Of a DNA stretch of 64,000 nt, positions 10,158 through 62,334 are shown in pieces. Location: positions 496,001-560,000 of the forward strand of contig CP145410.1 in NCBI GenBank assembly GCA_036867785.1. The letters run 5' to 3'. Both the position numbers and the translations under genes were made by a program. Each line of letters opens with the position of its first letter. Position 1 is the stretch's first letter. Source of the DNA: Plasmodiophora brassicae. Its lineage: Eukaryota. Below the pieces are notes generated by a model. That model saw nothing but the letters and a program-made list of their open reading frames with translations, was not told the DNA's origin and searched no databases.

Positions 10158-10247
10158 TACAGTAGATCGGCCGATCTGGAGAACGCAACGCCTACAAACA
10201 TAGCCGCCGCCTGCCAATTGCGAGAAACGCATGAACGAGGGGCTGTC

Positions 10248-11975: not shown

Positions 11976-12743
11976 ATGGACATCATCTTTGCGTTGATCG
12001 CACGCGGCACCAAAGTCCTGGCCGAGTGCACGAAGGAGAACCACAAAGGCAACTTCAGCGACGTCGGCCAGCGCATCCTGCGGCGCGTCAAGTGGCCTGG
12101 TCGAGAACCAGGCGCCGCTGGTTCGCGTAGGATGACCTTCACGAATCAATCGTACGTCGTCGGATAACGTCGGCAATGAATGCGACTTAACGAGCACGTC
12201 CAGGTTCTCGTTTCACATTCTGGCGCGGGAAGGCATCGCATTCATGTGCATGACAAAGTCGCAGACGGGTCGGCACCTGCCGTTCGACTTTCTCGATCAG
12301 GTGTCGAAGCATTACTTTAAGGAATACGGGGGCGGAGCCGGCGGCGAAGGGTCGTGCCACCTGCCCAGCATGCTGCGTCGGTGTATGAAGACGCTGGCCA
12401 TGTCCGACGAGTTCATGCGGATCGACAGCATGAACCGGGAGCTGGACGACGTCGCCGAAACCATGCGCCTGAACATCGAGTCCGTCGTCGACCGAGGCGA
12501 GAAGATCTCACTGCTGGTCGAGAAGACCGACAGCCTGAGCATGTCGAGCCGCCTGTTCAGACGCCAGTCGAGACTGGTCTGGTTCCGGTCCCTGCTGCGA
12601 CGTTACAAGACACGGATCCTGATGGCTGTCGTCGTCCTGGTACGCCTAAACAGTCTGCTGCGCCCCCCGCGGGAAGCTGTGACCAATGGTGAATCTTCCA
12701 GGTGCTGCTAGGCCTGTTCTACGCCTACATATCGGCTCTATGA
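11976..12743 (+). CDS. VAMP7: VAMP7-like longin R-SNARE
   Basis: Longin start IIFALIARGTKVLAE, SNARE motif NIESVVDRGEKISLLVEKTDSL, C-terminal TM. Two short introns (~12152-12203, ~12640-12701); stop TGA at 12741-12743. Confidence 0.85.
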
Positions 12744-18500: not shown

Positions 18501-21500
18501 GGACGTGATCGACTTCTGGAACAGGGCGATGAACCAGCCCAGCGAGTACTGGTACATCGGGTCGATGTTGGCCAGGTCGGCAATGCAGAAGAACAGGATC
18601 GACGAATGCACGGCGACGGGTTTGTATCCCAGGCGGGCCACATCAATCTCCTTTTCCGTCTTGTCCGAGATGGCCTGCTTCTCGGCAATGTCGTTGGAGA
18701 CCTGCTTCGAAGCGGACAGCACCTGGATGGCGCTCTCGTCATCCAGGATGCTGCCCTGGGTCGACGACAGGATCTTCAGGATCTCGTCCTCGATGTCCTT
18801 CAGTTTCTTCCTGTTCTCGGCGCTCTGCATGATCAGGCGGTTCTTCTCGGTCTGGAGCTCGGGGCGCTCCCGAGCGACGACCAGGCCCAGGAGCTGATCC
18901 TCGAGGCCGTCCGGCGTGATCATGAAGTTCAGCAACGTGATCTTGGTGGACAGCTCGGGCAGGTAGTGCGGGTTCCGCATCTTCGACGTGATGTAGAACC
19001 GGAACGCGTCCGAGTACTCGACCTCGGCGTCGCCCAGCTTGATCATCTCGATACCGCCCTTGCGGTACGTCTGCTTTAGCAGGACCGGCTCCAGCAGCGG
19101 GTCCAGCTCCTCCCCGACGTTCTCCAGCAAACAAGGCACCCCGAATTGGATTGCACCTGGCACCGATTTGTCAGCGCTGGGCCGGGTGTGCCCATGCGGT
19201 TTCGGGGCCCACCTTCCAGACGTCGACCGAAGTCGGGGTCGGTGAGCTTGCAGATGACGAGCTTGCGTTCCCGCTCCATGTTCTTGATCCAGATGTTTGC
19301 CTGGCCCTGCGGGTCGATCATCAGCGGCCACCGGCGCGCCTTGTCGATGATGATGGCGTTGTCGATCGAGAACGCGTCGTTCGGCAACCCATCCAGCGTC
19401 CACTGGCGAATTCGAACCGGATCCCCTAACGGCCACGGTCACAGACCAGACACCCTAGCAGGAGAGAGGACAGGCCACTACCGAGGGCGCCGGCTAGCGA
19501 GAATCGTTCAGCGCAGGTGAGGCCCAGGGACCGGCACGCGTTCGCCCACTCCTCGGTGCACGATGATCGGAAGGCGGCGGTGAAAGCGCCCAGATAGGCG
19601 ATGACGCCCGCCGACAGGATGATGTCGCCGGTCAGGTTCGCGTACTGGACGCCCAGTGCATGGGCGGCGTCCGTCCACCTGTCCTTCTCGCCGCCCAGGC
19701 CGCCGATCAGCTGCTGCGCCCGGACCAGCTTCTTCCCGCACAGGTCGACCTGCGCCTCCAGGTCGCTCTTCTTCTGCTGCATCCTCGACAGCGTCGAGTT
19801 CAGACCGGCCAGCTTCGTCTCCACTGTGTTCAGCTCGGCCTGCTTCGCCAGCAACCCCTACGACGCCGCCCTGTTTGAACCGTCCCCGACCGCCTCTGCA
19901 TTCGCGTCGCGTTACCTTCTCCACGACGGCGTACTCGGCCTTGGCCTGTTCCAGGCGTTCGCGCTTGGGGCGGATGGCGTTGGCGACTTCGTCGTACTGG
20001 TACATGGCGCGCACCCAGGAGCACAGGCCGAACGCCGCCTTGGACGCCTTCTTCACCGACGCCGGGTCGAACAGCGGGTTGTCGATGTACGTGGCGATCT
20101 TCTTGATGATGTCGCGCGGGATGTTGTCCTTGTCGTACGACGACAGCGTCGTCAGCAGTTTCGGGTCGCTCAGCAGCTTCTTCTTGGCCGGGTCCCAGTA
20201 GTCTTTGACCATCTTGCCTGTGCTGTCCGGCGATCTCGTCGGCGGGATGTTCATCATGACGCAGACGGCCTCCATGACGACCAGGACGCCGGCCGGCGGC
20301 GATTTCATGGCTTTGACCTCGACCAGGTCGTTCTTGGTCAACGTGTTCAGGGCGGCAATGGCCGCCTCCAGGATCGGCATGGCCTGGGCCAGGTCGGCGC
20401 CGCATTCGTCCGCGATCTGCTTGGCGGCGCTGGCCTTCTCGTTGGCGACGATCTCCTCCTGCTTCACCAGCGACCGGATCTGCTCGGCGTCGCGCGTCTC
20501 CTTGTCGACCTGGACGATCATCTCGTCGGTCTCGACGCCCGTCCTAATCAGGACCGGGCGCAGCTCCTCCAGCTCCTGCAACATGTTCTTCACCTGGCTC
20601 GCCGTCGTCGCCAGCACCTGCAGCCCGCCTTCGTACCGCTGCTTCGTCGACACGATCTGGCGGCGACGTTCCGCCAGCAACGATTTGAACGCGGTTATCA
20701 GCTCCAGGTACGACGACGGCGTCACGTAGTACCGGCGGCGAAGCTCCTGGTGGAATCGGACGGCCAGATCGTCGGTGCTTTGATGGAACTGAACGCAGAG
20801 CTTGACGCAGGACGCGCGAGTCGCCTCGGGCAGGTCGACGTCGGCGATGAACTCACGCGCCACACTCTCTGTGCCCATCGACAACGTCGTCAGCAGTGCT
20901 ATACGAAGGTTCGCCGCCGGTTCGCGGTGTACCGAGCGCGTTCGTCGGCCACTTCTGGAACCAGTCGATCGTGCAGCAGTTGACCAGGGACGGGAACATT
21001 CGCAGGCGATTGCGCAGAGCGTCCCCGACGGGCGACATGCAGAGCGCCAGGTGGAGGTTCTCGCGTACCATTTCCGTGAAGAACGCCATGCACTGGGCGG
21101 GCGTGCCGTCTTCGCGTCGCGCGCGCTTGTACGCCGGCTGCAGGTTCGTGGAGATCTCGGCGCGCTCCTCGACGCCGAACAGGTTCGGGACCTCGCCCGA
21201 GTTCAGGATGCCGTTGATGTCCTCGAGGAACGCCTCCTTCTTGATCTGCGAGTCAGTGAACAGGAACACGGTCGGCTCCTGCTTCTCGCCGGCCCAGCGC
21301 AGGACGCGCTTCAGGTCTTCGCGCCACTCGTTCATCCCGTACGTCTTGTTCATCTCGACCTGGAACAGGCGGTACCCGGCGACGTACGCCGCTAGCCGCG
21401 TCAGCGACTGGCGCCCTGTGCCACCAACGCCAACGAGCAAGGCGTGCCCGAACGGTTGCTTCAGCACCCGCGATATCCTCGAGACGTGCTCCAGCGCGAA

Positions 21501-24500
21501 CCGAAACAGGACGAGGCGCATCGGCGACCCGAACTCCTGGTTATAGTTCTCCAGCTGCGCCGCGAACACGTTCCGCATGGCGACCGCGTCGAGGACCTCC
21601 TGGTACGGGCGCGCGCCCGCCGACGATTTCGTCATGAAGTGCCCGTACATCAGGCCCCGAATCTCGTCCAGCGTGTCGACGACGCCATCGCCGTTGTTGT
21701 CGAGCCGGGCCAGGCATGCGTCGAAGTTCACCTTCAGGGTCGACTCGGCCGTCGTGCGCACCCACCCGAGGAACTTGAGCGCGTCCCCGTCATCAATCAG
21801 GCGGTCGGCGAACACGCGGTGCACTTCATGGACCCAGAGCCGCACGAACGCCATGCCGTCCGGGAAATCGTCGGCCCTGGACATGCACAGGCCGCGGATG
21901 ACGCTGGCCAGATCGCGCAGGTTGAACGTGTAGTGGGATCGCGCCGGCGTCGGCAGCAACTCGGCGGTGGCCGTCTTGAACAGCGCCCTGGTCGCATCGA
22001 CGATCGCCCCGACCAGGCCAACGACGCCGCTGGCGAACCCTTTCCCTGCGCGTGCGCGTGCTGTCAGCGAACGGCGGGCCGTCGTCATCGGCAGGAACGC
22101 CGACCTAAGTGCCAGTGCAGGATGGCGGTGAAGATCGTCGTCAGACTGGCGTCATCGAACGGCGTCATGGTGACGTGCGAGAAGTGCCTCGTCAGGCGCG
22201 ACGTGATCGGGTTACGCCCGCCACCGGGTGGCCCCATGGCGCACACCACCGTCGTGTCCAGCATGGTCCGGAACGACGCGTCGCCGACATCGTACCTGGC
22301 ACGCGCACACGGCGGGTCAGTCGCGCCCGGCACGCACGCACATACGCGCGCGCGGTGCGTGTGTGCCGCTGCACGCACCATCCGCCGTGGTCCAGGAACT
22401 GTCGCAGCAGCTCCAGCGGCGGCTGCGCGCCGAATTGCTCCGGCTTTGGCATGTTCAGGTCGTCGATGAAGATCACGCAGGTGCGGTTGCCTGGCGGGCC
22501 GTACACGCCTTTCCGTTTGCGATCCTGCGCGTCCGATCAGCGTCCGAAGGTGCCGGGAGGCGGTTGTCCCCCGTACGAGTTTGGCGTCGATGATCTCCCG
22601 GGTCTGGGACGCCGACGTCTGCGCCGAGAAGCTGATGACGAGCGGCGCGTATGCGTCCTTGTTCATGGCGGCCAGCGCCTTGGTGATGTAGGCGGACTTG
22701 CCGGTGCCGGTCGGGCCGACGAACAGGCCCGGGATGCGCGCCCGGGCGAACAGCTGGGTCAGGATCGTGTACCGCGCCGAGTCGATGGTCGGCACGATGA
22801 TCTCCTGGATGCGGGCGTTCGCCTCGATGCGGAATTCGGACGACGACCCCATCATGGACGACCAGGGCACCCAGCCGCCCGCGTTCCACGCGTAATCGTA
22901 GACGGATCCCTTGTCGGGCAACCTCATGTGCTACCAGGCCGTCACGTCCGGAACGTGGCAACACGATCAACGAAACCGACCTGGGACTTGCTGTTGGCCG
23001 GGTCGCTGCAGATCTCGCGGACGTGGTTGTTGAACAGGGCCCGGCCGTTCTCGTCCACTGACGCGCCAATCGACCAGACCAGAGCGAACACAAAGTACCC
23101 TTCGACGTCCTTCGGCGCTGTGATTGACAAGGTTCAGTGCGCGCACCGGGACATTGAGGCAACCTGTACGAACTCGCTGGGGCGTGCTGGGTGGCCTCTG
23201 TCAGAAGGACCTTGTACATGCGGAGCAACGCAGTCGCGAGGTTCATATCGCTTGTCGGCGAGTATTCAACACACTTCCGGCGAACGAGCTTCGACAACGG
23301 GTTTAGTGGGGGCTGGCGTCGCGTGCTGTGATGCAGCATACCTCGAGCGACGTGGGAATGAAGCGCTTGACGAGATTCTGGAAGGCGGTGGCGTTCAAGA
23401 CTTCCGTGGGCATCGCCGATTGCCACGAGTCGATCAACGGCTGAACGCCGAGCGATTGCGGCTCCAGGAACACCATACCGCATCGCGACACCGTTGCGGG
23501 CGACGCCACTGCCAGGTCGGCGACCTGAGCGTCAACCGTCAGGATCCCAGCCGGGCGTCAAACACAGAGACCCCGGGGCTTGCCTCGAAGATCATGTTCA
23601 TCGTCGACGACATTTGGATAATCTCGCCCGACATGAGACACAGCTTCTTGTTGTCATCCAGCACCGTGTTCATGTTCTCGATCCACAACGTGTCGACAGG
23701 GCCGTCAAACATAACCTGGCCATACATTACATCTGACGGAAACTGGCGGGGACCAGCTCGCACCCACTAACCCATTTCCGGGCTTCCGTCTCAGCAGCGG
23801 CGAGCCGCCGGAAATGAACGGACAGCAGCCCGTCCTTCCATTCATGGGACACGGGATCGAACTGGCCTGCACCCGCCGGTCAGCTCTGCGGAACATGGTC
23901 GATGTTGCACCCGCTGGGCGTACCGTATATTTCGTTGAGGGTGATCGATTTGGGGTTCAGCGTGACCAGTTCGACGGGTTCCGCGCTGATGTCCGACAGC
24001 GCCCCGGCCAGGACGCGTATGGCCGACGTCTTCCCCGAGAAGGGCTGCCCGACCAGCATCAGCCCGTGCCGCACCTTAATCATCTCGTGGAGCTGAAGGA
24101 TCTGCGCGCACACACGGTTCAGCCAGAAGGAGACACACGACATCATCTGTCGCACCTTCTCGAGGAACTCAGGGACAGGCCGCAGGTTGCGCTTGGCCAA
24201 GTTGGCCTGGATCGCGGGCATCAGCGTCGAGTAGTCGCTGACCGGGCGGGCGACACCCGGGAACAGGTCGCCAATGATGCCGACGAACAGGGGAATGTCC
24301 TGCGACAGGAACTTGGGCAGGTTGACGTCGTTGATCGAACGCAGCATCAGGCGGTTCTCGTCCTCGGTCGGCTCTAGACGCTTCAGGTTGCCGGCGGCAG
24401 TCAGGACGGCCTTCACCGCCCTCATGCCGTAATCGTAATGGTCCTGCGAAGACAGCTGCTCGCTGCACAGCTTGTATGTGGCCACAATCTTACGCGCCAG

Positions 24501-27500
24501 GGCGCGCGCCTCCACGAACCCGCACGAGTACAACGTGATCTCGGCGATCATCTCATAGTTGGGCACCATCATGGCCACCGTCCTGAACAGCGACTTCAGG
24601 TTATCCGGCAGCTCCGATCGTCCGGCGTAACCCGGGTTCATCGTGATGAACACGTTGCACGACAGGCGCAGGCGGATCTCGGTGCCCTCGAATCGGAAAT
24701 GGTGGGCCTTGGCGGCAACCGCCCGCTGGATGCTCAGCACCTGCTGCGCGACAACGGACAGCACTTCCAGGTCGATCCGGTTGAACTCGTCGAAGCAGGA
24801 CCAGGCGCCGCTCGACGCCAGGCCTTTGAAGAACTTGGACATGGCCAGGTAGTCCAGCCCGTCGGAGCAGTTGAACACGACGCATTGGATGGCCATGGCC
24901 TTGGCCAGGTCCTTGACCGTTTCCGTCTTACCCGTACCGGCAGGGCCTTCGGGTGCCCCGCCCAGGTTGAACTGGATCGCGCCCATCAGCGTTCGGTAGC
25001 ACCGATCCGTCAGCGGCGTGATGACCAGACGGTCTGAGTTGCCCAGGTACTCGAACCCGTACGCCAGGTCGGAATTGATGATGCGGACCTTGACCGTGTC
25101 CTCGAACCAGTAGTACCTCAGCTGCGACGTCCACTCGAAATCGGTGATCTGTTCACTCGTGAATCTGTCTCGCCCCACGACCGACCCCATGCGGCCGCTG
25201 TTACCTGCGAGACGTTCGCCTTGACAAGAGCCTGGAGGGTATCACGGGCGTGAACATCGATGACGACGAGAGCGCCCAGGGTACGACGCTGCAGGCGGGT
25301 CAGCTGGCCGCGAACCAACGCGACAATCTTCTGCAGGTGCTCGTTGGACTCGTCGAGGAACGCTTTCAGCGTGCCCGACATGCCGCCGTTGTTGCCGGCG
25401 ATGGCTTTCTCGACGAGGGACGTCCAGAAGATCTGGCTGACGGCCAGGACGACCTGCCCGGGCCAGTTCAAGACCCACTGCTCCCTGGATTCGTTCGCGT
25501 ACGCCACCATGGCGTTCGACACGCTTGCCTTCACGCTCGCGAACATCAACGTTTCGACATCGCTGAGCCAGCGCTCGACGGCCCCGTTTGCATCCTTCGG
25601 GTTCATCGTCGACGTCAACGCCAGCCTCTCCCCTAACCATCATCATCATCAACATCGATATTGGATCACGCGCGCGCGTTCACGCATGTCTCGGTACCTT
25701 CGGGGGAGAACAGGGCGGTCACATCGAGGTTCTCCTGGAACTCCAGCTTGGAGACCCCTTCGAAGCACTTCTTCAGGTGCGGCTGGACACGTGTTGGATC
25801 CTTCGTTTCGGCCAGGATCTCGAGCAGCTCGTTATCGGACAGGAAGAAGAACCTGGCCAGCATGGGTCAGCGCTTATGGTTGCAATGGATCTGTCAGTGA
25901 TGGACCTCGGGAAGAAGAGCCGTTTGGTCTCCAGGTACTGGTTCAACCCGGCCTGGATCTTGTCGAGCATGGCGCGTGCTGACGTGAGCGACTCGAGCAG
26001 GTTGGGTATCCTGGAGACGGCCAGGGCCTGTGGCGTGATCTCGACCTCCGACATGATCGTGCGCCAGGCCGTGTCGACCTGCCGGAACAGGTTGCCCTCT
26101 TCGGGCATCTGCTTCATGATGTCGTCCGACGAGAATATCGGCTCCAGGTACAGCCAGGTCGTTTGCACCTGCAGCCAGTTGTCGATCACGTCCTGCATCG
26201 TCACCAGCCAGGACTCCCACTCCCGAATCTGCTCCTCGAACGCCTTGGCGAAACTCGACCCCTTCATCGTCTGCGTCTTCACGATGTGGTCGTCCAGCAG
26301 GGTCTGAATTTCCTCGATCCCAGACCCGACCAGGATCGAAGTGCCCGTGTCGCGGTACGACGTGATGGCGAACAGCACCGGGTTCCACTCCTTCTTCATG
26401 GCGTCCAGCGTCTTCTCGATCGAGTACTCCTTGGACGCCGTCTCCGACACCATCTGCAGCTGGTCCAGCGACTTGGCAACGCCCATGTCGACGAACCTGG
26501 TCAGCGACGTGTGGTCGTCCGGGCGCAGGTCGAACCCGACGATCTCCGAGATCGCCGCCCAGTGCCGGGGACGCAGGCCCGGGTTGCACAGCACCTCCAC
26601 CAGCGGGATGTGGACCTTGAACGCCTCCAGCGACGTCTTGATATGGACGGCCACAGAGCCAGCCGAAACAGTGAGTTGCTTCGACAGCTTCAGGGCCGTC
26701 CTCCACATCGTGTCGCACTTCGATTTGACCTGGGGACGGTGTGTAAACGTATTCGCTGGACGACGGACGTCCCAGGCAGGCGAACCTGTTCGGCGTTCAG
26801 GGAGAAGACGGGGCCGTCCACCCATTGCGTGTGGTTCTGCCTGAATTCGGACACGAGCGTCCAGAGGTCCTCGTACGGCGTCAATTGCTCCTTGGCCTGG
26901 TCGAGCAGGTTGAATTGTGTGACAGGGATGCCCAGGAGCTCGTCCTGCTCCTGAATGCGCTTGCATTCCTCGGCTGTCCATGCACGATCAGCAACAGCGT
27001 CGTGCGATGCAGGCGTCACCGTTACTGGCGGCATGCAGGTTCTCCCGAACGTTCTTGATGATGGTGTTGAACTCGACTTCGCGTTTGAGGTCGGTGAACT
27101 CGGCAAAGTCGGCGATCTGGGCGGCGTACGATTCGAGGAGCTTGTTGAACTTCTCCTTGCGGTCCTCGAACTGGCCCTCCATCTTGCGGCGTTCGGCCAT
27201 GAGCTGGGCGTCGGCCTCGACGATGATGGCGTCGAACTTGTGCACCCAGCCGAACGTCGACCCGATATGCGACAGGACGTCGTCGTTCACCAGGTGCCCG
27301 CATTCGAACAGGAACCGCAACTCTTCGACCGCATACGCACAGTCGTTCATCAGGCGCTTCAGCGTCGTCTGCTTGAACGTATTCGAATATCGCACCAGGT
27401 CGACCAGTTCCTATTCGTTGCACATCAGTCCACGGCCGCTCGACCGCAACGGGCCTGCCGAGACCTTGGAATTCAATGGCTTCTTCAGGAGAATGGCAGC

Positions 27501-30698: not shown

Positions 30699-32027
30699 CT
30701 ATGACGACTGGGGGACGAACTCTTCCGGCGAGGTCAAGGCATCGAGCGGCGACGCGTTGTTCTTCTCGTACAGCGCAATGATCTTGTCGGGATCCGAGCG
30801 CGCCCGGCGCTCCAGGTCGTCTCGTATGGCTGGGAACGCCTCGATCGTCTTGGCTTGATTTTTCCTGTCAGAAGCGAGTCAGCGCTGACGCCCAAATGAA
30901 CACGAGGTTACGCACCAGGTCAGGAACATGTCGTAGAACAGGGCCTGATGGAGAGTGCACATTGTATCCACGACAGAATCCCGCTTCGCGCATAGCCAAT
31001 AGAGGCGCGCCTCGCGAAGCACGCGCAGGCAAATGCCAGTGAAGTTCAACGATACGACTGCAAACGGGAAGCTCTGCATCGGAGAAGACGTTAGGTCGAT
31101 CGCGACCACCAGCTGAGCGGCACCATTCATACCTGCCTCTCGTCTCGCGACAAGGCGAATATCCGAGTGAGCAGAGTCGTCGACGACTTGAGGAAGGCCA
31201 CGATTTGGAGGAGGCCGAACATGCCCGATCCTCTCAGGTCGGTCCCAGGGTCGTTTCCCTGAAAGCCGACAACCTCCCAATGGCTTCCATATCGAGGGCA
31301 CGGCTCCGTTTGGCCCGTCAGCCGTCTGTACACCGTCTGGATGATGCGCTCATGCACTTCCACCGATGTATCCAGCTGCTGAAGCGCCATGTAGAATACG
31401 GCGTCTCGTTCCTTCCTCATTTGCTCGGAGCGGAACTCTGGAGGGCCACACAGCTGATAGCGCATGCGGGTGAACCATGACAGCTGCCGAAAATCGTATC
31501 GCTGGATGCTTGGATTCGGATCGCGAACCAGGTCCATCAATGCCGACCTGGCTTCGATGTATCCGATAGGCGTCCATCGGTCCTTAGGTCTCAATGCGGC
31601 CGCCCCTGATCTGGCCTGCCGTTCAGCGTCTTCTTGCGCCACCTGAACGGTTGTCAACGACCAATGCACGGCGACTGATGTCGTCGACACTGACTTTCTC
31701 CCTGAACTCGTTAACAGCGTCCCATTCATTCACCCCTGCAGGAGAAGGGCCCGGTACGTCGGCGAGTGGGCCCGTTTCTGCGGGCGGCTTGTCGTATGCT
31801 GATATGACACGTTGCGCCGCGAGGTTCGCCTCGTGGGTGTTCAGGTCGGCAGACGTAATAGGCGCGATTGCTGCACTGGCCGGTTCGACAACGCCAGTCG
31901 GCGGTTCCGCAAGGCCCTTGTCCATCGCATCCGTCTGCCGGGTTCCAACGCCATCCCAGACGTCAAACTCATCTTCCGCAGCCTGTTCGACCTGATTCGG
32001 TCCCGACGGCTCGTCCGCGGCGGACAT
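30699..32027 (-). CDS. ELMO/CED-12 domain protein (ELMOD3-like ARF/ARL GAP)
   Basis: WEVVGFQGNDPGTDLRGSGMFGLLQ and FPFAVVSLNFT. Several short introns; stop TAG at 30701-30699. Confidence 0.88.
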
Positions 32028-35820: not shown

Positions 35821-37203
35821 TCATGGGCCATGAATGGGCACCACCGCGTCGTTGGTCCTCGTCGTCGTGCAGTGCAGGAAGTCGAGCTCGTTCTCCTTCT
35901 GCAGGAATCGCTCCCAAGGGCCGCCATGGCCGGCGCCGACGTACCTGGCGAACGTGTCCTTTCGCATCAGCTGCAGGACCTCCGCCCTGGCGACGTCAAA
36001 CGTGTCCGGTCGAATCGTCGGGTCGGCGGTGGCCGCTCGTAACGCGCCGGCGCTAACGTTCACCGTCTGCGCCGAATGATCCGACACGAGGAACGTCTTC
36101 CGGATCTGCTCCCCGTCGAGCCGGCGTCGATCCTCGGGCAGATGCGGCCAGTTCCGCTCGAACTTTCGGACGGCTTCCCAGAACAGCAGGTTCTCGGTGC
36201 TGAACTCGAGCGTCGCCGCCCTCATCATCATGTCGTAGCCGTCGCGCGTCCCGAGGAACTTCTCGAACAACGACGCCGGCACGCCCGACTCGTCGAGCAG
36301 CGCCTGGCGTTCGGTGGCGTGCTGGTACAGGGGGACGACGACCAGCTCGAACTGGACGTAGGGCGTGGCGATGCCGATCGGGATCACGTAGATGATCCCG
36401 GCGATCGTCACCGTGTCGTGCCAGGCGCGGACGGACCCGAAGTACAGGGCCAGGCCGACCAGGATGACCAGGTGCGTCACCCGGTGGCACAGGTCGATGC
36501 GCCGGAACGACCGGACGATGCCCAGCGAATCGCTCGCCGTCTTCCGCAGGTACCGGATCAGTGGAGCAATGTAGGCGGCAAACACGACGAGTCGCATGGT
36601 CAGGACCGCCAGGTACACGGTGCCGGGGCGCCCGCCGTCCAGCACGGTCGCGTAGAACGGCCCCTGGAGCTGGTCGTGGTACACGACGACGACCAGCAGC
36701 AGCGGCCACTGCCAGATCGTGTTCAGCGCCAGGAACAGGAGCTCAACTCGGACGCTGTTCAGGTACGTGTGCGCCTCGAACCACGACCGCCCGCTGCGCT
36801 CAGCGCTGCCGGCGGGCGCCACCCGCGCCGACGTGGACCCGTCGAGCATTGTCTTCCGTCGGGGGCGTCGCGCGTCCCGCTCCCGATGCAGGTTGAACAG
36901 GAAGAAGTAGTTCCAGACGAGGACGACGATCGCGTCCAGGGCCAGGCCCATGAACGCGAAGTGCCAGGCGATGACCTGCCAGGCGGCGACCCTGTCCGGG
37001 TACACGAACGCGACGACGTTGCTGGACGTGAACGCGAGCGCGCACGCGAAGAAGAAGCAGGTCGTGTGGGGGCGCCGCGCCGACACGCATCGCGACGACC
37101 GGCGGGTCGCCCAGAACAGGATGACGGCGGGGACCATCATCGCCCCACAGGCGAGCCCGGTCCCGCCCACGACCGACGCCACGATGTACACCGGCGGCCA
37201 CAT
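35821..37203 (-). CDS. Seven-transmembrane RGS protein (7TM-RGS)
   Basis: About seven hydrophobic helices, then an RGS box (FEKFL...EFSTENLLFWEAVRKFE...VNVS...FDVARAEVLQLMRKDTFARY). Intronless. Confidence 0.88.
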   Translation of the reverse strand: MWPPVYIVASVVGGTGLACGAMMVPAVILFWATRRSSRCVSARRPHTTCFFFACALAFTSSNVVAFVYPDRVAAWQVIAWHFAFMGLALDAIVVLVWNYFFLFNLHRERDARRPRRKTMLDGSTSARVAPAGSAERSGRSWFEAHTYLNSVRVELLFLALNTIWQWPLLLVVVVYHDQLQGPFYATVLDGGRPGTVYLAVLTMRLVVFAAYIAPLIRYLRKTASDSLGIVRSFRRIDLCHRVTHLVILVGLALYFGSVRAWHDTVTIAGIIYVIPIGIATPYVQFELVVVPLYQHATERQALLDESGVPASLFEKFLGTRDGYDMMMRAATLEFSTENLLFWEAVRKFERNWPHLPEDRRRLDGEQIRKTFLVSDHSAQTVNVSAGALRAATADPTIRPDTFDVARAEVLQLMRKDTFARYVGAGHGGPWERFLQKENELDFLHCTTTRTNDAVVPIHGP

Positions 37204-37318
37204 CGGAATCGGGGGCTGGGTGCGGCGGCACGATCGTCCCCTCCAGGCGGGTCCATGGCCGGTCACGTGATGTGCCCCCGGCGGCGCGTGCCACCCCGCG
37301 AATAGGTATCTGCCGTCG

Positions 37319-38776
37319 ATGCCAGCAGCGACGACGACGATCACGGTCGTGCTGGGTCGAGCAACGGCCCGTGTCGCATTCGACCCCGGGACCTGCCCCG
37401 TTCTGCAACCGCCGCGCCTCTGGGCGGCGCTCGACTTCGACGCCGCCCAGATCGAGTTCCTGCGCGTGACCGGCCTGCGCCCGGTCGGCCACCCGGTGCC
37501 GATCGCGGCCGTGCCGATGAGGTTCGTCGGGCAGGCCCTTCAGCGGTGCGACGAGAGCGTGGCGGAGGTGACGGGCGTTCCAACGAGCGGGCTGAACGAC
37601 GGCGAGACGTACGAGGTCGTCGTCCGGGACACGCGCGACCTGCTCGCCGAGAGGCTGACGGACGAGCAGCGGCGCCAGATCGACCTGATCTGGGCGACGG
37701 TCGCCGCCGATGGCGAGTACAGCGTGCCTGTCGGTGTCGTCCTGGAGCGGGTGCGCGCGTTCGAGATGGACCTGCTGCGCGAGTCGGTTCAGGGCCGACC
37801 CGATCGACGCGACCTGCTCGAGCGCCTGTTCGAGCAGAAGGTGGAGCAGGAGCTGGCCCTGTGGCGGACGTTCGACGTGCGCCGCACCGGGTACATCAGC
37901 AGGGACGACCTGGTCCTGGGCGTCGGCCCGATCATCCGCATTCGATCCGGCCTGGCGGATCTCGACGACCCGAACGTCATCGCGTCCGTCGCCCAGTACG
38001 ACGACAATCATCGATGGTCCCCGATGCCCTCCTATGGTTGCCATCGAGCCGGCGACGACGACCATGGGCAGACGTCGGCACCTACCGGGCAACAGCAACC
38101 ACGAAGCGGACCCGCTGCCCCTGTCGGCAACGACGACGACGACGACGTGGAACCGTTCGCTGTGGAGGCCAGCGCTGGGCGCCAGACCCGACATGGCGCC
38201 AGCACTGGCGTATCCATCATGGACCAGCAGCGTCCTTCGGGGCGGGTCGATGTGCAAACGCAGACGAGCCCGGTGAACGGAAACAGTGACGACGACGACG
38301 ACGACGACGATGACGATGACGACGATGGCCAGGACGAGGCGGCGGCGACAGAGACGGAGACGGCGTCGGAAAGCGTACCTGGATTGGATCGCGTAAGGCG
38401 TAAGGTGGTTCGTGTGGTGATCTGTCGGCCTGGGTCGTGGTGGAACGCGAGAACGATCAAACGGGTTATGCTCCTGCATTCGTCACCGGACATGAGCGCG
38501 CATGCCATCTGGTATAAGAAGCCGAGCAAGACCTGGGAGCACTGCGAGTACATCCCGGTGGAGCGCATTACGCGCGTCGTCTTGGGACCCGGCGAGTTCC
38601 CCGGGAACGAGTCGAGCAGCATCCAGGATGGTGCCCGCGACGGGTTCCACTTCACCATCGAGTACGCGTCCGGGAGCGGCGACGACGACCGCGAGCACCT
38701 ACACGTGTCCATGAAGCGGGAGCGAGATCGGGACGCCTGGTGCAACGCGCTCCGTCACCTCATCCAGCAACGATAA
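37319..38776 (+). CDS. EF-hand plus C-terminal PH-domain protein with a poly-Asp linker
   Basis: EF-hand-like FDVRRTGYISRDDL; (GAC/GAT)n Asp run at ~38288-38326; PLC/Mcp5-type PH signature IPVERITRVVLG...FTIEY...LHV...RDAWCNALRHLI. Confidence 0.7.
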   Translation: MPAATTTITVVLGRATARVAFDPGTCPVLQPPRLWAALDFDAAQIEFLRVTGLRPVGHPVPIAAVPMRFVGQALQRCDESVAEVTGVPTSGLNDGETYEVVVRDTRDLLAERLTDEQRRQIDLIWATVAADGEYSVPVGVVLERVRAFEMDLLRESVQGRPDRRDLLERLFEQKVEQELALWRTFDVRRTGYISRDDLVLGVGPIIRIRSGLADLDDPNVIASVAQYDDNHRWSPMPSYGCHRAGDDDHGQTSAPTGQQQPRSGPAAPVGNDDDDDVEPFAVEASAGRQTRHGASTGVSIMDQQRPSGRVDVQTQTSPVNGNSDDDDDDDDDDDDDGQDEAAATETETASESVPGLDRVRRKVVRVVICRPGSWWNARTIKRVMLLHSSPDMSAHAIWYKKPSKTWEHCEYIPVERITRVVLGPGEFPGNESSSIQDGARDGFHFTIEYASGSGDDDREHLHVSMKRERDRDAWCNALRHLIQQR

Positions 38777-39187
38777 ATTTCAATACGGCGTTGCACACTG
38801 TCGCCTTCGACATGTTCTGTTATCTAGCGACAGGGTCGGTTGCCCTTCCCAGCGTTCAGCAGTGAGGCGCGGATGAAAGCGGGCGTGCTCCGATCGGGAG
38901 GCCTCACGTGCGCTGACTCAAACTAGACGCGTCAGACCCTCCGGAGTACCTAACACGCCGATCCTGATGATCAGAACGTCCCGGGTCAGCCTGGCGTCAC
39001 AATCCTCTGGCCCGGCTACCTACGTAGGCTTTGCTGACAACGTGTTTGCGCTGCCACTGGTCAACAGCAGCGACGTTTGTGAATATACGCGCTCTCGACA
39101 CGGGCACACAACGATTGGGAACAATCGATCCGACAGGCGAGTTTAGATCTAACGACCATCGTGGACGTTGATGGGAATGCGCATCAG

Positions 39188-42100
39188 CTACGGTTGTATG
39201 GGGAAGAACGTGCCAATGTTCAGCGACATGTGGCGCTGCTCCCGATCCTCGATCTTGCGGATGCGGACCTGCTTGAACGGGCCGAAGCATTCGCCATCGA
39301 CAACGACCCGGAACGACTGGTCTTCGCGGGCCGTCGTCAGTTTCATGTAGTTGACGTGCTGGAGCGGCTCCTGGATCAGGAACGCGTACCGGTTCTTCAG
39401 CTTCGCTTTGTGCTCTGATACCTTCGCAAACACCTGCGACACGGTCAGCAGGCAGTCGGCGTGACACATCTGAACGATCCGAACCTCGAGCCAGGGGTCT
39501 TTCGGGTTGGGCGGGAACGCCGGGTCGTCGGCCGACGGGATGTTCGAAATCGAGATGCGATCGAACGGGATGGACTCCTCGGCGGCCATGCTCTGGCGTC
39601 GTTGCACGTCATCGACGCACGGCTGGCCGGCAAGGTCGACCCTCGTCATTTGCAGGTTCAGCTCCAGCGGCACGTAGTTGAAGTCCTGCAGGGGCAGTAT
39701 TAGGGCGCGCGCACATATACATACAGAACCAGATCCACGAGGCGCCCGCGCGTCACCTTGTCACGGAACACTTCCTTGACATCGCGCAACGTGGCCATGA
39801 CGCCTTCACGACCCAGGTTCTTGAACAGCATGGCGGTGGCCACACGACCGATCTCCGCCCGCTCCACCAGCGGGATAATGAGATCAGGGGCGCCTTCCTC
39901 GACGGTCACGCGCCTCCATCCTGGCCATTACCACGACGGTTAGCAGGCCTTCCATATACCGAGGCGCTGCCTACACCACAGTACCTTCTATCTGGAACAG
40001 CTTGATCTGAAGAGAATATTCTGCTTCGCGAACGTAACTCTCGACGTTGGACTGTAAGAGTGCCCCGAACGGGGACAGCGGTTCCTCGGGTTTGAGTTCG
40101 TTGAACGTCGGCTCCTCCTCCGACATGGTCGGCACGAGGAACTGTCGCGACACCATGGGCACGTACAGCTGCCTGTTGTACCAGCTGTCGTACCGGGCAA
40201 TGTACGACGCCAGGATGCTGTTCCGGAACGGGACCAGGAAGAACCTGGACGACCACGTTAGCGCTTCGTACGGCGGCGGCTGGGCGTGCGTCGTTGTCCA
40301 ACCGAAGAGCGATGCCTTTAAGCGGTTCGCTCTGGCGTTGCATAAGCTCGACGTAAGCGGTAGCCACTTGGTGGATGATGGAGTCGGAACCGGCAATGCA
40401 CACGCGGACCTCGACAGGGTCCTGCGAGTCGGCGAACGCTTCGTACAGACGGAGGACCTTCTCGACACGATCAAGCAATGGCGTCTTCGGGAACGGCGTG
40501 CACCTGGGCGGCCAGTCATTCGCGTGCGTCGACAGCGAGGACGCAGGATGCCATTGTCGGGTCGGCGTACCCGAGCTGTTGAATGACTTCAGGCGTCGGG
40601 AACATGTAGTCCCTGGCGACCAGCCAGTGCAGGTGGGCGATCTCCGGCAACGATGGCATGAGGTTGGCGGCGAGAACAGGCGGCAGCGACAGATCGCTCG
40701 CAATGCGCTTCGCCTCGTTGGATCGGGCAATCTTCGTGAATTGGGCCCTGATCAGCGCGAAGTTTCGCTCCCGATGCGAAACGGCGTCCTCGGGCGATCT
40801 GTACATCGGCGACCGTTGGTCCCTCCCCGGTACAGAACGAGCGAACCTTGGCCCCTACATGTCGAGCGATTCCTGCAGGATGTTGACGGTTTGCCCGAAC
40901 AACAAGATGACATCCTCCTCGGTCAGCTTGTATACGTCGTTCGGGTCGATGGGCGCACTTGGCGAATGAATGATATCTGCCGCCATCAATCAGCAACAAT
41001 TGCAGGCCGCTGATGAGCGTTATCGTTCGGTACTGAGTAGGAGAAGGGCCTGCACCTCTGTGGACAGGCCCGATGCGAACACCTTGTTCTCGCCGTCAAT
41101 GTACAGGTCGGCGCTGTACAATCCGACCAGATGGGCGAAGTTGCTCGACAGGCTGCAGACGCTATCGATGACGTAAAAGATGGGCCGAGACCTTGGATTG
41201 CCCATTCAGGTCGGCATCGAGGACGCTGTCTCGCGCTCTGCAACGTACCGTTGGACCTGGGTGAGTTTGACGGAGCTCGTTTCTGGGACGCGACTTTCGG
41301 CGGCGAACCGCTCCAGAACTGTGTTGCCCGGTGCAAGCATCTCCTGCTTCAGCATCAGCAGCACTCGGCGTGCCACCTGCCGTACACGTCAGCATGGACC
41401 GTACATTATTGCACGGGGCATGGGAGGAACCAGAGAATATGGCGTCGGCCATGAGAAGAATGGTGACACGCGGTCGATGGCCGTTTGCAGAAAGGGCCCT
41501 GTAGGCGCTCGCCACTGCGCGATTAGACCGGTCAGTGCCCCATCTCAGTCGAGCCCGGATAGCTCGCGATCTGACATAGGACAGCATCGACCGAAGTAGG
41601 TGCAGAAGCGCCAGGAGCGAGTGCTGCTGCTCCATGCTCGACGGCTGCGATCGAATCGCTTGTAGCTGGGCCAGCACGATATCGAACACACGCAGGCGCG
41701 CATTCTAACTCTCACCGATCAGCATCGTCAACAGGACGACGTGCTGTCACGTCTTGACCTTCTCCTTACACTGCTGCAGAAGGTACGTGTAGACGAAAGG
41801 GAACGATTGGGACGGGAAGTCCTGTCGATGCAGTGTCGGGACGACCTCCTGCGTCAGGATCTTGAAGACCTGGCGGGGCGTATCCTCAGCGTTCGATTAC
41901 GGCGGCACGAGCGCCGGTCTCAGGGTGAACCTCTCGAGAATGCATAATATGGACGTTCGAGACAAGGCCGTCGAGGGCGTCCTTGTCCTCGCAGAGCTTG
42001 GCGGTGAGGATGGAGACGACTTCCGGGTACCCGGCCACGTAGGCGTCCTTCCGGAACGCTTCGATATGCGAACTCCAATTCATGACCACCTTCTTCAGCA

Positions 42101-42486
42101 GCGTATCCGGGCGGATATCCACGAACAGGCCCAGGAACAGGATCGAGTTCAGGAGGCTCTGCAGCGGGTAATCGGGCAGTTTCCTACCCAGATCAGTGCT
42201 GATCTGTGTGCACGACGCGACGTCAGAAACGCAGCCAGACCGGTTCGCAGTTGCCGCCACCTACCTCGACAAAGGTCTTGATGAACAGGCGCATGATGAG
42301 AACGGCTTCCCGGTTGTTCTCCGTGGACGTGATCTCCCTGAAGAAGATATCGTATTCGTGGCGGGACAGCATGCCGCCGCGGGCGCCGATGAACGTGTCG
42401 AACAGGTCCTGGACGGACAGGCCCATGGTCTTCATCGCCTTCTGGCTCAGCATGCCCGGGTTCCGGGTCGACACCATCGACGTCAT
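39188..42486 (-). CDS. PI3K regulatory subunit p101/PIK3R5-like protein (multi-exon)
   Basis: Spliced FSWPTPYSL|VARRVLLMLKQEMLAPG (intron 41377-41430). Also VRVCIAGSDSIIHQVATAY, FFLVP...LASYIARYDSWYNR, SYVREAEYSLQIKLFQIE and terminal LNIGTFFP. These blocks recall p101 in the same order. Confidence 0.6.
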
Positions 42487-42741
42487 CGCCGACCGACGAT
42501 GAGCGCCTGCGCTGACGACCAGGCACTGTGACGTAGCCCACAGGTACTATTCGACGTGCGACGTCGTGCACGATGCCGCTCGTCCGGCAAACGGCCGCGT
42601 GATTGGACGCTGCGGCCCATACCCTGTTGTTGTTGCTGGGTCTCCCCTCCTCGACCAAAGCGCAGTTTCAACTTGGAAACAGAAATAGCCTGGGGCTCCA
42701 TCAGCGAGCTGGTTGTCCAGGGCCGGAACGAAACCGCAGCA

Positions 42742-44755
42742 ATGGTCGATGGTAGGACGGCGCTGACGGGTACTGCCGCCCTGGCCATGTCGGTGCCGGA
42801 CCGGGAGGATCGTCGCCTAGTCGGCCTGGTGGCGCCCGCGGTCCAGAGCCGTGCCCTGCAGGTCCAGCGCTGCCTCCGGTACCTGGACGCCATCGACGAC
42901 AGGTTGCAGCGGTTCGCCTTCATGCAACGCTTGCACGTACGCGCGCGCGGGCTGTGTCTCCGGATCGCTGGTCAAACGTACTGAGTGGCGACGTTCGTCG
43001 TCGGTGTAGTCCAGCGATGTCGACCTGTTCTACATGCTGCTGATGACGCACCCGGACACGATCCTGCCTATCGTGTACACGCCTGCCGTCGGCCTGGCCT
43101 GCCAGCAATGGTCACACATGTACTTTGAACCGCAAGGCCTGTACGTGCCAATCTCGGCGCGCGGTGCGGTTCGCAAGGTCGTTGACAACTGGCCCGGCGA
43201 CGAGGTCGACGTGGTCGTCTTCACCGACGGCGGTCGCATCCTGGGCCTCGGAGGTATATGCTGGCTGGATCCGACGCACACGTTCGTTGTTCAGTGACGC
43301 GCGACGATCGCGTTAGACCTTGGCGCGAACGGCATGGGCATCCCGATTGGCAAGCTGGCCCTGTACGTCGCGTTTGCGGGTATCAGCCCGCGTCGCGTCC
43401 TGCCCGTCTGCCTGGACGTCGGCACCGACAATGAGCAGCTGCTGAACGACGACCTGTACATCGGGTTGAAGCAGAGGCGGTCGGCGACGTCGTTCGAGGA
43501 GTACGACGCGTTCGTTGGCGAGTTCATGGATGCGATGGCGGACCGGTTCGGTCGCACGACGCTGATGCAATTCGAGGATTTCGGTACGCAGACGGCGTTA
43601 TACCTGCTGGGCAAGTATCGGTCGCGCTTCACGACGTTCAACGACGATGTCCAAGGGACGGCCGTCATGACGCTTGCAGGCGTCATGTCGTCCCTGCCAC
43701 TCCTGGCCAGTCCTCATCTACACGAGCAACGCATCGTGTTCTTTGGAGCGGGATCCGCCGGCATTGGCATCGCCGACATGATCAGCAAGGCGATCTCTGT
43801 TTCTGGTAAGCCAGGGTTGCCGGCTATCAGGTCCGACGTTCCTAATCGGGGCGATGCAGGTGGCATATCGTTTGAAGAGGCACGACGGCGCGTGTGGGCG
43901 GTCGACTCGCGCGGGTTAATCGTCGCCAATCGTCCCGGGCGCCCTCTCGAACCGTACAAGCAAGGGTACGCTCACGAACACGAGCACATAAAGGACCTGC
44001 TCGACATCGTCAATGCGATCCGACCCAGTATCCTGATCGGCGTGTCGTCGCAGGTCGTTACTGTTAGCACCGGATCCATCCTAGGCAGGCGTAACTGACG
44101 TCGTTTCGCTAGGCGGGTGCGTTCAATGAGCAGATCCTGGCTGCCATGGCGATGATCAACAAGCGGCCCGTCGTGTTCGCGCTCAGCAATCCGACGTCGC
44201 AGTCGGAGTGCACGGCCGAGATGGCGATCGTGCACACCGAAGGCCGGGCGTTGTTCGCGTCCGGTAGCCCGTTCCCGCCTGTCACGTATCGCGGCAAGGA
44301 GTTCGATACGAGCCAGGCCAACAACGTGTACGGTTTCGCTGCCTGTTTGGGGGACTCGGATGGCGCGTGTTACTGAGTTCGCCTCCGGTTAGCTATGTGT
44401 TTCCTGGCATCGGGCTCGGTGCTCTGGCAAGCCAGGCGCTGCAGATCAGCGATGACATGATGGTTGTCGCTGCGAAAGCACTGTCATCGTTGGTCACCGA
44501 TGCGGACAGGGAGCGCGGCAACCTGTTCCCGCCGATGGACGGCCTGAGAAGAGTGTCGGCGCGCATTGGCACGGCCGTCGCTGAGGCGGCGTTCCGCAGG
44601 TAACGTGCTGTCGGGTACGGGTATGGCCAACGTATCTAGGGATGACGGTTTGTCGCAGCGGCTTGGCGTCTATTCCGCGCCCCGACGACGTTTCGCTTGC
44701 TGTGCGCCGTACGATGGTCTACGACCCGACTCAGTGCCTAGTCAGCAAGATGTAA
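42742..44755 (+). CDS. NAD(P)-dependent malic enzyme
   Basis: [63 protein letters not shown] and YVFPGIGLG. The last intron (44600-44658) gives the C-terminus ...[13 protein letters not shown]. Confidence 0.95.
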
Positions 44756-55164: not shown

Positions 55165-56216
55165 TTACCGACAACTCGAGGTGGCTAGTAGGCTTGCCTT
55201 GCGCTTCCTCATCGCTGTCAGTGCCAGGAGACGGAACGCTGACAAGAACGTGGCAAGGGGACCTGTCGTCCAGGTCCGCCAGCTCTTTAGGGCGGCCGTG
55301 CTGAATGGCGCCAAATGGAATGCGCGATTGATGAGCGTTTCCAAAGCCGAGGGCCGGCCTGGCTGCTGCGCTATGTTCCTCTGCATCCATATCGCCAAGT
55401 CGGCGAGCGTCAGGTCGCCATCGGCAACTGCGACTTGGACGAACGTTGAGCATATCACATAGGTAAGTACACATTCAGGAGCGATGCCCAAGGTGACCAA
55501 CGTGCTGACGTCCGCTATGGGATCCAGGGCTGCCACGTATGCTCGAGTGTCCTTGCTGAACGGGATCCTCGCCTGTCGCCAGCTCGACCAGCAGAAGAAG
55601 GCGTCGCTGAGTTGTGCCCAGCTCGGCATCGAGAACCCATGGTCGATCGGCGCCAGGCTGACTTTGAGCTTCGATGCGCCCGGTGGTCGCCGTTCAACAA
55701 GAAGGTTGCCCTCGTGACGATCGAGGTTGAAGATGCGACAGTCCAGCAGCCCGATGCTGTGCACTTGCTCGACGTCGAACACTGTCGATCCACAGTCCTC
55801 CGCCGTGCAATCGTACCGAACGTATTCGCTTAGGGCGCCAAGCTCCCTGACCTGCCCGCTCCCGTTCGTCACTTGCATGACGCCGACGACAAGGTCGACC
55901 CGAGGCACGCCAGCCCGACGACAGTGGTCCACGAGGTATGCCGCACGCTCCTTGAGCACCGCATCTGGATCCACATGAATACTCTAGTGACGACGACGAC
56001 TATGGGCTTACCGCCGACGACGATGCCGTGCTTCACAGCGGATGGCTGCCCGATTTCCGTTCGCTGCTGAACGCCTTCCTCCGATGCCGGTTTGAAGATG
56101 TATTCAGTGGGCGCGCTTTCCGGCGTCGATTTCAGGTTCGCAAGATAGACGCCAGATAGCCCTTCGCGCCCATTGGATAGGCGTCGGGCTCGCAGCTCGA
56201 CGACCGGCGTCGTCAT
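55165..56216 (-). CDS. Type II phosphatidylinositol 4-kinase (plant PI4K-gamma-like)
   Basis: GLSGVY...IFKPASEE, ERAAYLVDH, LDCRIFNLDRHEGN and PIDHGFSMP. One intron near 55970-56030. Confidence 0.88.
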
Positions 56217-61253: not shown

Positions 61254-62334
61254 CTATGTATTACTGTGATCAGGAATCCGGCAGCAGCAGATGTAGACAA
61301 AGTGGTCAGGATGGGATAGGTGCCGGCAAAGTCTCTCGATGGGCGTATCGCCGGGTAGCACAATGCCATGGACAGAGAACTTGAACGGCAGTGACGTGAT
61401 GTCAGCGTCGTTGACGACGTGCTGGAATGCGGTGGAGATGGTCCATTCCTTAGTGGCTGATATTGGACGTTGGTAGCATCGGATACCCCCTGCGCGCGTT
61501 CGCAGGTCAGGTTCTTGCTCCTCGCGAACCATAATGAAACGGACAGGAAGTCGTCTGGACGATCGCGTCGCCAGGGCTGGCTGGACTATGGACTCCTCGT
61601 TGGCAACGTCTGAAATGCTATATGTAAGAAAATAATAGCGAGGTTCAAACCATGCGATTAACCTTCGACGCACGATCGCCATAAAGCATGCAACTCTGCC
61701 GATGATAGGTCCATAACAGGGTTTGTAGTGCCGCATTGCATGAAGAAGGCCTGCACAGGATAGACTCAGTGCACGAAGATCGGCATTTCGATCTTAAGTA
61801 CCTGTTTCAGCGAATGGATGAAGTGGAACTCGCCGGGGCATTTGCCAAGGGACGACGTAACGGGACGCATGACACATTGGGCCGGGAATCCAGAGAAATG
61901 AACAACGAGTCGATACGGCAAGATACCTGCTCGGTCGCCGGATGATCCCGCTTGGCAGTCGAACAGAACGCCTACTGGGTACTGCCATTGCAGAGGACCC
62001 AGAACAGAGCACTCCAGCCAAACATCACGGGACCCGTCAGCGACATGCTCTAAACGACTCCTTCAATCGCTGGTCAGAAATGAAACAGCATAAGCGTCCT
62101 GACTGGCGAACGAATCGATCAGGTCGGGAATATAATGAAGAAAGGTGGCGGTACGTCGAACGAGAACCTACACACATACGGTCAGGTATGGCAACCAAAC
62201 GAAGCGAGCGCGACCCGCACTACATATGTTGGCTCGGGCGGGCCGACCGATGTCAGATCCAATGATGATAGCTCAAAGCGGACAGGAATGTGCCCCCGAC
62301 GAACCCGACTGCCAATCGCAGCCGCATCGTCCAT
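61254..62334 (-). CDS. ATG5: Autophagy protein 5
   Basis: VRRGHIPVRFEL N-terminus, conjugation Lys in FIHSLKQ|A, RLPVRF and C-terminal VHGIVLPGDTPIERLCRHLSHPDHFVYI. Multi-exon. Confidence 0.88.

Follow-up and report, generated by a model that had tools for sequence, protein, structure and literature searches.

A p101/p84-type protein, and candidate phosphoinositide 3-kinase adaptor, in the rhizarian Plasmodiophora brassicae

p101 and p84 are adaptors through which G-protein signals reach PI3-kinase gamma. Here we describe a protein of this type from a non-animal eukaryote, the rhizarian protist and clubroot parasite Plasmodiophora brassicae, encoded within a 64,000-nucleotide stretch of contig CP145410.1 (positions 496,001 to 560,000; hereafter the window, with coordinates counted from its first letter). 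The gene lies on the minus strand and comprises 14 exons and 13 introns, and its 840-residue product is identical, letter for letter, to the public P. brassicae protein P0001. Almost certainly, this protein is a homologue of the vertebrate adaptors p101 and p84 over the full extent of those two proteins, and shares their fold. Taking the evidence as a whole, the best explanation is that P0001 is a non-catalytic, p101/p84-type scaffold acting as a phosphoinositide 3-kinase (PI3K) adaptor, a reading to which we assign a probability of about 0.6.

Homology to p101 and p84

An earlier note on this DNA, made from its letters alone, had read the spliced gene as p101/PIK3R5-like and had proposed checking it against the PI3K_1B_p101 profile and by AlphaFold plus Foldseek; both checks, together with collinear profile matches in the PDB, support that reading. 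Using the Pfam gathering cutoffs of 23 bits for PI3K_1B_p101 (PF10486), 25 bits for Pacs-1 (PF10254) and 23.6 bits for DAGK_cat (PF00781), P0001 scored above cutoff on PI3K_1B_p101, with 40.4 bits (E 1.2e-10) in two stretches, the best of which placed residues 230-292 on profile positions 71-136. A true fish p101 (P0152) reaches 1516 bits on the same profile, indicating that P0001 is a distant branch. Taken singly, the exons are too short to decide, weak matches being confined to exon 10 (Pacs-1, E 0.0083; p101, E 0.026). When P0001 by itself was compared with all PDB sequences, p101 chains were the sole matches (E 0.011), in two collinear pieces pairing residues 233-301 with p101 85-153 and residues 510-560 with 511-566.

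Judged by phmmer comparison with 1.84 billion representatives, P0001 is part of a large protein family: 360 representatives matched it with E ≤ 1e-3, of which 212 reached E ≤ 1e-10 and 78 reached E ≤ 1e-30. Many of these relatives have lengths of 800-950 residues and can be aligned over their full extent, with identities of 24-31%. We built an alignment, A1, of P0001 and 55 full-length relatives (at least 755 residues, down to P0103) taken from the best 150 of the 360, excluding fragments and later entries. At E ≤ 0.001, PF10486 was matched by 41 of the 56 members (best E 1.1e-15), Pacs-1 by 13 and DAGK_cat by three; no canonical vertebrate p101 is among them. Searched against the PDB, the A1 profile matched p101 with E 7.1e-27, in three collinear stretches (p101 48-264, 502-566 and 600-876), and p84 with E 2.8e-15, the next PDB sequence following at E 0.32. 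Alignment of A1 to P0152 with hhalign gave a probability of 98.9% and E 1e-17 over 556 columns. In the ESM Atlas, PIK3R6/p101 clusters were nearest (0.92, 15 of 30 hits). Word-indexed homologue searches with P0001 and with A1 returned P0001 itself and one fish p101, and nothing else.

The four blocks on which the earlier note had relied are all present in the product: FSWPTPYSLVARRVLLMLKQEMLAPG (residues 265-290), VRVCIAGSDSIIHQVATAY (516-534), FFLVP..LASYIARYDSWYNR (552-575) and LNIGTFF (830-836). The first exists only after splicing, because it spans the junction of exons 5 and 6. All four fall within or beside the most conserved 15-residue segments of the 56-member A1, indicating that they are not chance resemblances.

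Predicted structure and domain layout

The AlphaFold2 model of P0001 obtained with A1 had a mean predicted local distance difference test score (pLDDT) of 90.3 and a predicted template modelling score (pTM) of 0.92. It consists of helices only at residues 15-300, of mixed alpha/beta structure with a helical insert at 305-625, and of beta-rich structure at 627-834. In the Foldseek comparison of the model with the PDB, the first eight ranks went to p84 (8aj8_B; E 2.4e-18, target TM 0.70) and to seven chains of p101, followed by sphingosine kinase 1, NAD kinases, YegS and DgkB at E 4e-7 and weaker; structural comparison with VIA-align covered 975 of Foldseek's top chains. [quoted passage not shown] The layout is as follows, with coordinates in the window.

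41985..42486, minus strand: residues 1-147, extra N-terminal helical extension (AlphaFold2; VIA-align alignments begin at residue 148/149)
41296..41984, minus strand: residues 148-300, predicted helical solenoid, counterpart of the N-terminal helices with which p101 binds p110gamma (alignment and model)
41460-41326, introns included, minus strand: WPxPY loop, residues 264-290, inside the solenoid
40022..41295, minus strand: residues 301-625, predicted alpha/beta domain of diacylglycerol kinase/sphingosine kinase/NAD-kinase-like fold, with a helical insert and the degenerate motif GSDS (model and motifs)
39191..40021, minus strand: residues 626-840, predicted beta-sandwich, counterpart of the p101 domain that binds Gbetagamma, together with a conserved C-terminal TFFP strand (alignment and model)

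The first 147 residues are without counterpart in the solved p101 and p84 chains. According to the authors of the p101 structure, p101 contains a helical solenoid and, after it, an alpha/beta barrel with a beta-sandwich, these two being similar to diacylglycerol kinase, YegS and SphK1 but devoid of catalytic residues (PMC8397274). The predicted fold of P0001 and its structural neighbours mirror that account.

A degenerate kinase-like core

The model of P0001 contains the two-domain alpha/beta plus beta-sandwich fold of kinases of the diacylglycerol, sphingosine and NAD kinase type. Nucleotide-binding motifs of the GGDGT type presumably carry the catalytic residues in the diacylglycerol/sphingosine kinase superfamily. 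P0001 has GSDS at the position of GGDGT in its relatives P0061 and P0064, and IDSVCSLSS in place of a first strand of the N..S..G[KR] type, and DAGK_cat found no match in it even at E ≤ 1; it keeps VDGE, the D805 of which is invariant in A1.

Four full-length relatives, P0061, P0064, P0051 and P0093, combine a p101-type solenoid with near-canonical GGDGT, N..S..G[KR]-type strand and DGE motifs. P0061 matches both the p101-type solenoid (E 1.5e-10) and, above cutoff, DAGK_cat (27.2 versus 23.6 bits); the DAGK_cat matches of the other three are weaker. Going by their motifs, these four may have kinase activity and may stand, in evolution, between the lipid kinases and p101.

Candidate contact surfaces for PI3K and Gbetagamma

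p101 and p84 hold p110gamma mainly through their alpha3-alpha4 and alpha5-alpha6 loops, with R362 of p110gamma forming a cation-pi pair with Y75 of p101, and R359 another with W115, a residue replaced by Leu in p84 (bioRxiv 10.1101/2022.07.29.502076). In the comparison of P0001 with PDB sequences, W115, the Trp of TWPVPY in p101, aligned with W267 of P0001 (FSWPTPY), and an equivalent Trp is kept in 54 of the 56 members of A1. The whole WPxPY...E..PG loop, together with the helix that follows, ranks with the most strongly conserved parts of the alignment (of 56 members, W is kept in 54, the first P in 51, the second P in 55, E in 55 and G in 54). We take the partner to be a PI3K mainly because this conserved surface is the one with which p101 holds its catalytic subunit, and the conservation tips the balance, if modestly, towards a PI3K adaptor function for P0001.

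Candidate partners exist in the organism: a supplement lists the P. brassicae PI3Ks PlasB_04559 (KEGG K00922) and PlasB_04589, with amoebozoan and haptophyte homologues (PMC6282348).

p101 binds Gbetagamma through a flexible loop of its C-terminal domain, inserting R712 and L713 into Gbeta, and p84 is described as being without this loop (PMC10187307). In P0001, the loop aligns with a lower-confidence helical insert at about residues 663-695. A response of P0001 to Gbetagamma would be less likely than its adaptor function. As for the C-terminal proline contact of p101, a C-terminal Pro was found in only three of the 56 members of A1.

Proposed mechanism

P0001 would be a four-part scaffold, formed by the helical extension (1-147), the solenoid (148-300), a dead diacylglycerol/sphingosine-kinase-like domain (301-625) and the beta-sandwich (626-840). 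As in p101 and p84, the loop bearing W267 would grip a Plasmodiophora class I-type PI3K catalytic subunit by its C2 domain and the linkers on either side of that domain, and the C-terminal beta-sandwich would assist in recruiting the kinase to the membrane, perhaps on a Gbetagamma signal.

Several observations weigh against the adaptor interpretation. At E ≤ 0.001, 15 of the 56 members of A1 lack a PF10486 match, and the identity of P0001 to p101 and p84 in structural alignments is only 13-18%. The equivalent of p101 Y75 lies in a poorly aligned loop that is not conserved in the family, nor is the sequence of the insert at 663-695 conserved across A1. Compared with p101, P0001 is extended by 147 residues at the N-terminus, and the long linkers that are unresolved in p101 (311-512 and others; PMC8397274) are missing from it. 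The class I status of the Plasmodiophora PI3Ks comes from supplement annotation only (PMC6282348). Finally, kinase motifs persist in some relatives, and the family may therefore have had an enzymatic role ancestrally rather than that of an adaptor.

Alternative interpretations

Some of these same points favour a different reading, in which P0001 is a true homologue of p101 and p84 whose partner is not a PI3K; the solenoid and dead kinase would then be an ancient general adaptor or membrane module, and the recruitment of p110gamma a later, animal-specific event. The low identity and the lack of conservation of Y75 and of the Gbeta-binding loop fit this possibility, and the extra 147 residues could carry another interface. 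Further, a 2015 phylogeny of PI3K subunits dates the origin of p101/p87 (p101/p84) to vertebrates, far later than that of class I/II PI3Ks (PMC4617754), and the related C-terminal region of PACS proteins is without defined function (bioRxiv 10.1101/2025.11.05.686565). Against it stand the conserved WPxPY...E..PG loop of the solenoid, which in p101 is the catalytic-subunit interface, contact Trp included, and the class I-type PI3Ks reported in P. brassicae (PMC6282348). On balance we regard a non-PI3K partner as unlikely, albeit of appreciable weight.

Much less probable is a trafficking adaptor of the PACS (phosphofurin acidic cluster sorting) type. Databases label P0001 'unnamed protein product', and its UniRef name starts 'Phosphofurin acidic c...'. 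The earlier note had offered PACS as the alternative on the strength of the C-terminal part, and the resemblance itself held up: Pacs-1 scored 32 bits, above its cutoff of 25, with residues 509-666 on profile positions 70-212 of 413, the same profile was matched by the 13 members of A1 mentioned above, and a PACS cluster appeared in the ESM Atlas at 0.82. As an identity it is very improbable, since the match covers a third of the profile and its exon 10 part also fits the p101 profile, whereas residues 1-300 are predicted to be all helical, with the p101 WPxPY loop and no C2-like beta-sandwich. No solved PACS C-terminal region surfaced in either PDB search, by sequence or by Foldseek, so the two folds were not compared directly. 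We read the Pacs-1 signal as the PACS C-terminal region sharing the dead lipid-kinase-like core, and not as PACS identity of P0001. A parallel between PACS-WDR37 and p101-Gbeta was considered and dropped, as WDR37 binds the FBR of PACS1 and not its C-terminal region (bioRxiv 10.1101/2025.11.05.686565).

That P0001 is an active lipid kinase of the diacylglycerol/sphingosine kinase superfamily, as its fold could suggest, is highly improbable given its GSDS and IDSVCSLSS substitutions, the missing DAGK_cat match and the inactivity that the authors of the p101 structure ascribe to that protein of the same fold (PMC8397274).

Gene structure and transcription

Six-frame translation of positions 38600-43200 with joining at GT..AG sites gave a coding sequence on the minus strand that opens with an ATG at 42486 and closes with the stop codon at 39190-39188, and the 42486..39188 interval given in the earlier note corresponds exactly to these limits. 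Each of the 13 introns has GT..AG ends and a length of 51-71 nt, with the joints in contigs reading CT..AC on the plus strand. Exons 2 to 12 agree among the model, the contigs and P0001; exons 13 and 14 agree with homologue spacing, the contigs and P0001.

42265..42486, minus strand: exon 1, ATG at 42486; joint 42203/42265 in contigs
41931..42203, minus strand: exon 2
41759..41869, minus strand: exon 3
41576..41704, minus strand: exon 4
41431..41514, minus strand: exon 5, W267 codon at 41451-41449
41249..41376, minus strand: exon 6
41034..41191, minus strand: exon 7
40859..40976, minus strand: exon 8
40571..40798, minus strand: exon 9
40303..40503, minus strand: exon 10, VRVCIAGSDS... block with the degenerate GGDGT site
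39985..40244, minus strand: exon 11, FFLVP..ARYDSWYNR block
39757..39920, minus strand: exon 12
39485..39685, minus strand: exon 13
39188..39433, minus strand: exon 14 with the stop codon (39190-39188)

The 13th intron (39484-39434, 51 nt) is missing exactly from contigs of public runs, and the spacing of the PWLE-QHV motif in the 55 relatives agrees with P0001, that is, with this intron removed. A 13-exon model reading through it, with 17 extra residues and a product of 857, was ruled out by this spacing and by the spliced contigs.

Spliced contigs contained all 13 joints in runs X2 and X3 and 12 of the 13 in X1, the three runs coming from three studies. The gene is transcribed and spliced, spliced copies being present in three independent data sets; here we rely on the spliced joints in contigs alone, the type of these runs (RNA) being a guess. 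The spliced contig of X3 continues 362 nt past 42600, implying either a long 5' untranslated region or neighbouring transcripts that overlap in the assembly. In contigs of a further run, X15, the same stretch is unspliced. Compared with positions 39107-42600 of the window, X15 has 33 listed differing positions and one 1-nt deletion, mostly intronic or scattered in exons, differences compatible with X15 being a different strain of this organism.

Neighbouring genes

About 1.6 kb past the 3' end of the p101-like gene, and separated from it by a single gene, lies an open reading frame with an RGS (regulator of G-protein signalling) domain (E 2e-9; 35824-37539, minus strand); it matches the G-protein theme, to which we attach little weight, gene order in eukaryotes being a poor guide. 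Convergent on the same 3' end is a 501-residue open reading frame (37271-38776, plus strand) with a long poly-Asp run, for which Pfam gave no match at E ≤ 1e-5 and whose C-terminal stretch looks PH-domain-like by eye. On the 5' side, the close plus-strand neighbour is a malic-enzyme gene (43298-44095).

About 13 kb from the p101-like gene, an open reading frame at 55168-55983 (minus strand) matches PI3_PI4_kinase (E 6.7e-16, profile positions 62-210 of 241). We take its DRHxGN...IDHG motifs to be type II PI4K-like rather than those of a class I PI3K, and with its partial kinase profile it was set aside as a partner of P0001.

Elsewhere in the window are a large dynein heavy chain gene (about 17000-27000, minus strand; AAA_6, AAA_7, AAA_8, AAA_9, MT stalk and DHC_N2), genes for ELMO/CED-12 (31130-31729) and ATG5 (61257-61793), both on the minus strand, and, on the plus strand, those for CTP synthase (3170-4867), a LanC-like protein (10158-11792) and a longin-synaptobrevin SNARE (12136-12708).

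Significance

In the full-text literature searched, where most subscription journals are lacking, no non-animal p101 homologue is described. A Pfam match on P0001 is already stored in public databases, and novelty here thus means not described in the papers searched, rather than unseen. Given the vertebrate dating of p101 and p84 (PMC4617754), P0001 represents a remote branch outside the animals that has not been published.

According to reviews, class I catalytic subunits are present in Dictyostelium and Entamoeba, with no regulatory subunits known there (PMC6563779). A transcribed, full-length structural homologue in a rhizarian is a concrete candidate for the missing regulatory subunits of protist class I PI3Ks. 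More tentatively, and with less confidence than we have in the adaptor function itself, p101-type adaptors might be an ancient eukaryotic family that has existed alongside PI3Ks of class I/II type from close to the eukaryotic root onwards. The P0001 gene would then encode such a 'missing' subunit, using the conserved Trp loop to clamp the kinase and coupling this enzyme to membrane or G-protein signals, with the relatives bearing GGDGT and DGE as surviving intermediates, and both the adaptor and the PACS C-terminal region would derive from an active, solenoid-bearing lipid kinase. The family also ties together three subjects that are mostly discussed separately, namely p101/p84, the PACS C-terminal region, which has no known function, and the diacylglycerol/sphingosine-kinase-like enzymes. 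For clubroot biology, P0001 would be an added component of the PI3K pathway, which a study with a class I PI3K inhibitor linked to plasmodial growth (PMC6282348).

Comparison with known systems

Compared with p101 (PIK3R5; PDB 7MEZ chain B and 8SO9-8SOE), P0001 shows 16-18% identity, belongs to a rhizarian protist instead of a vertebrate, and has neither Y75 nor the R712/L713 Gbeta-binding loop in recognisable form. The A1 profile matches p84/p87 (PIK3R6; 8AJ8 chain B) less strongly than p101 (E 2.8e-15 versus 7.1e-27), and p84 has Leu where p101 and the P0001 family have Trp, indicating that the protist family is closer to p101 than to p84 at this contact residue.

With the C-terminal region of PACS1 and PACS2 (PF10254), P0001 has in common a V..V.G.D... 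strand-helix and an F..P...A.Y....D..Y block. Before this core, PACS1 carries an atrophin-related region, a C2-like, eight-stranded FBR, which is cargo-binding and near the N-terminus, and a middle region, whereas P0001 has a p101-type solenoid instead (bioRxiv 10.1101/2025.11.05.686565). Sphingosine kinase 1, YegS, DgkB and the NAD kinases, in turn, are without an N-terminal solenoid, and differ from P0001 in that its nucleotide-binding motifs are degenerate.

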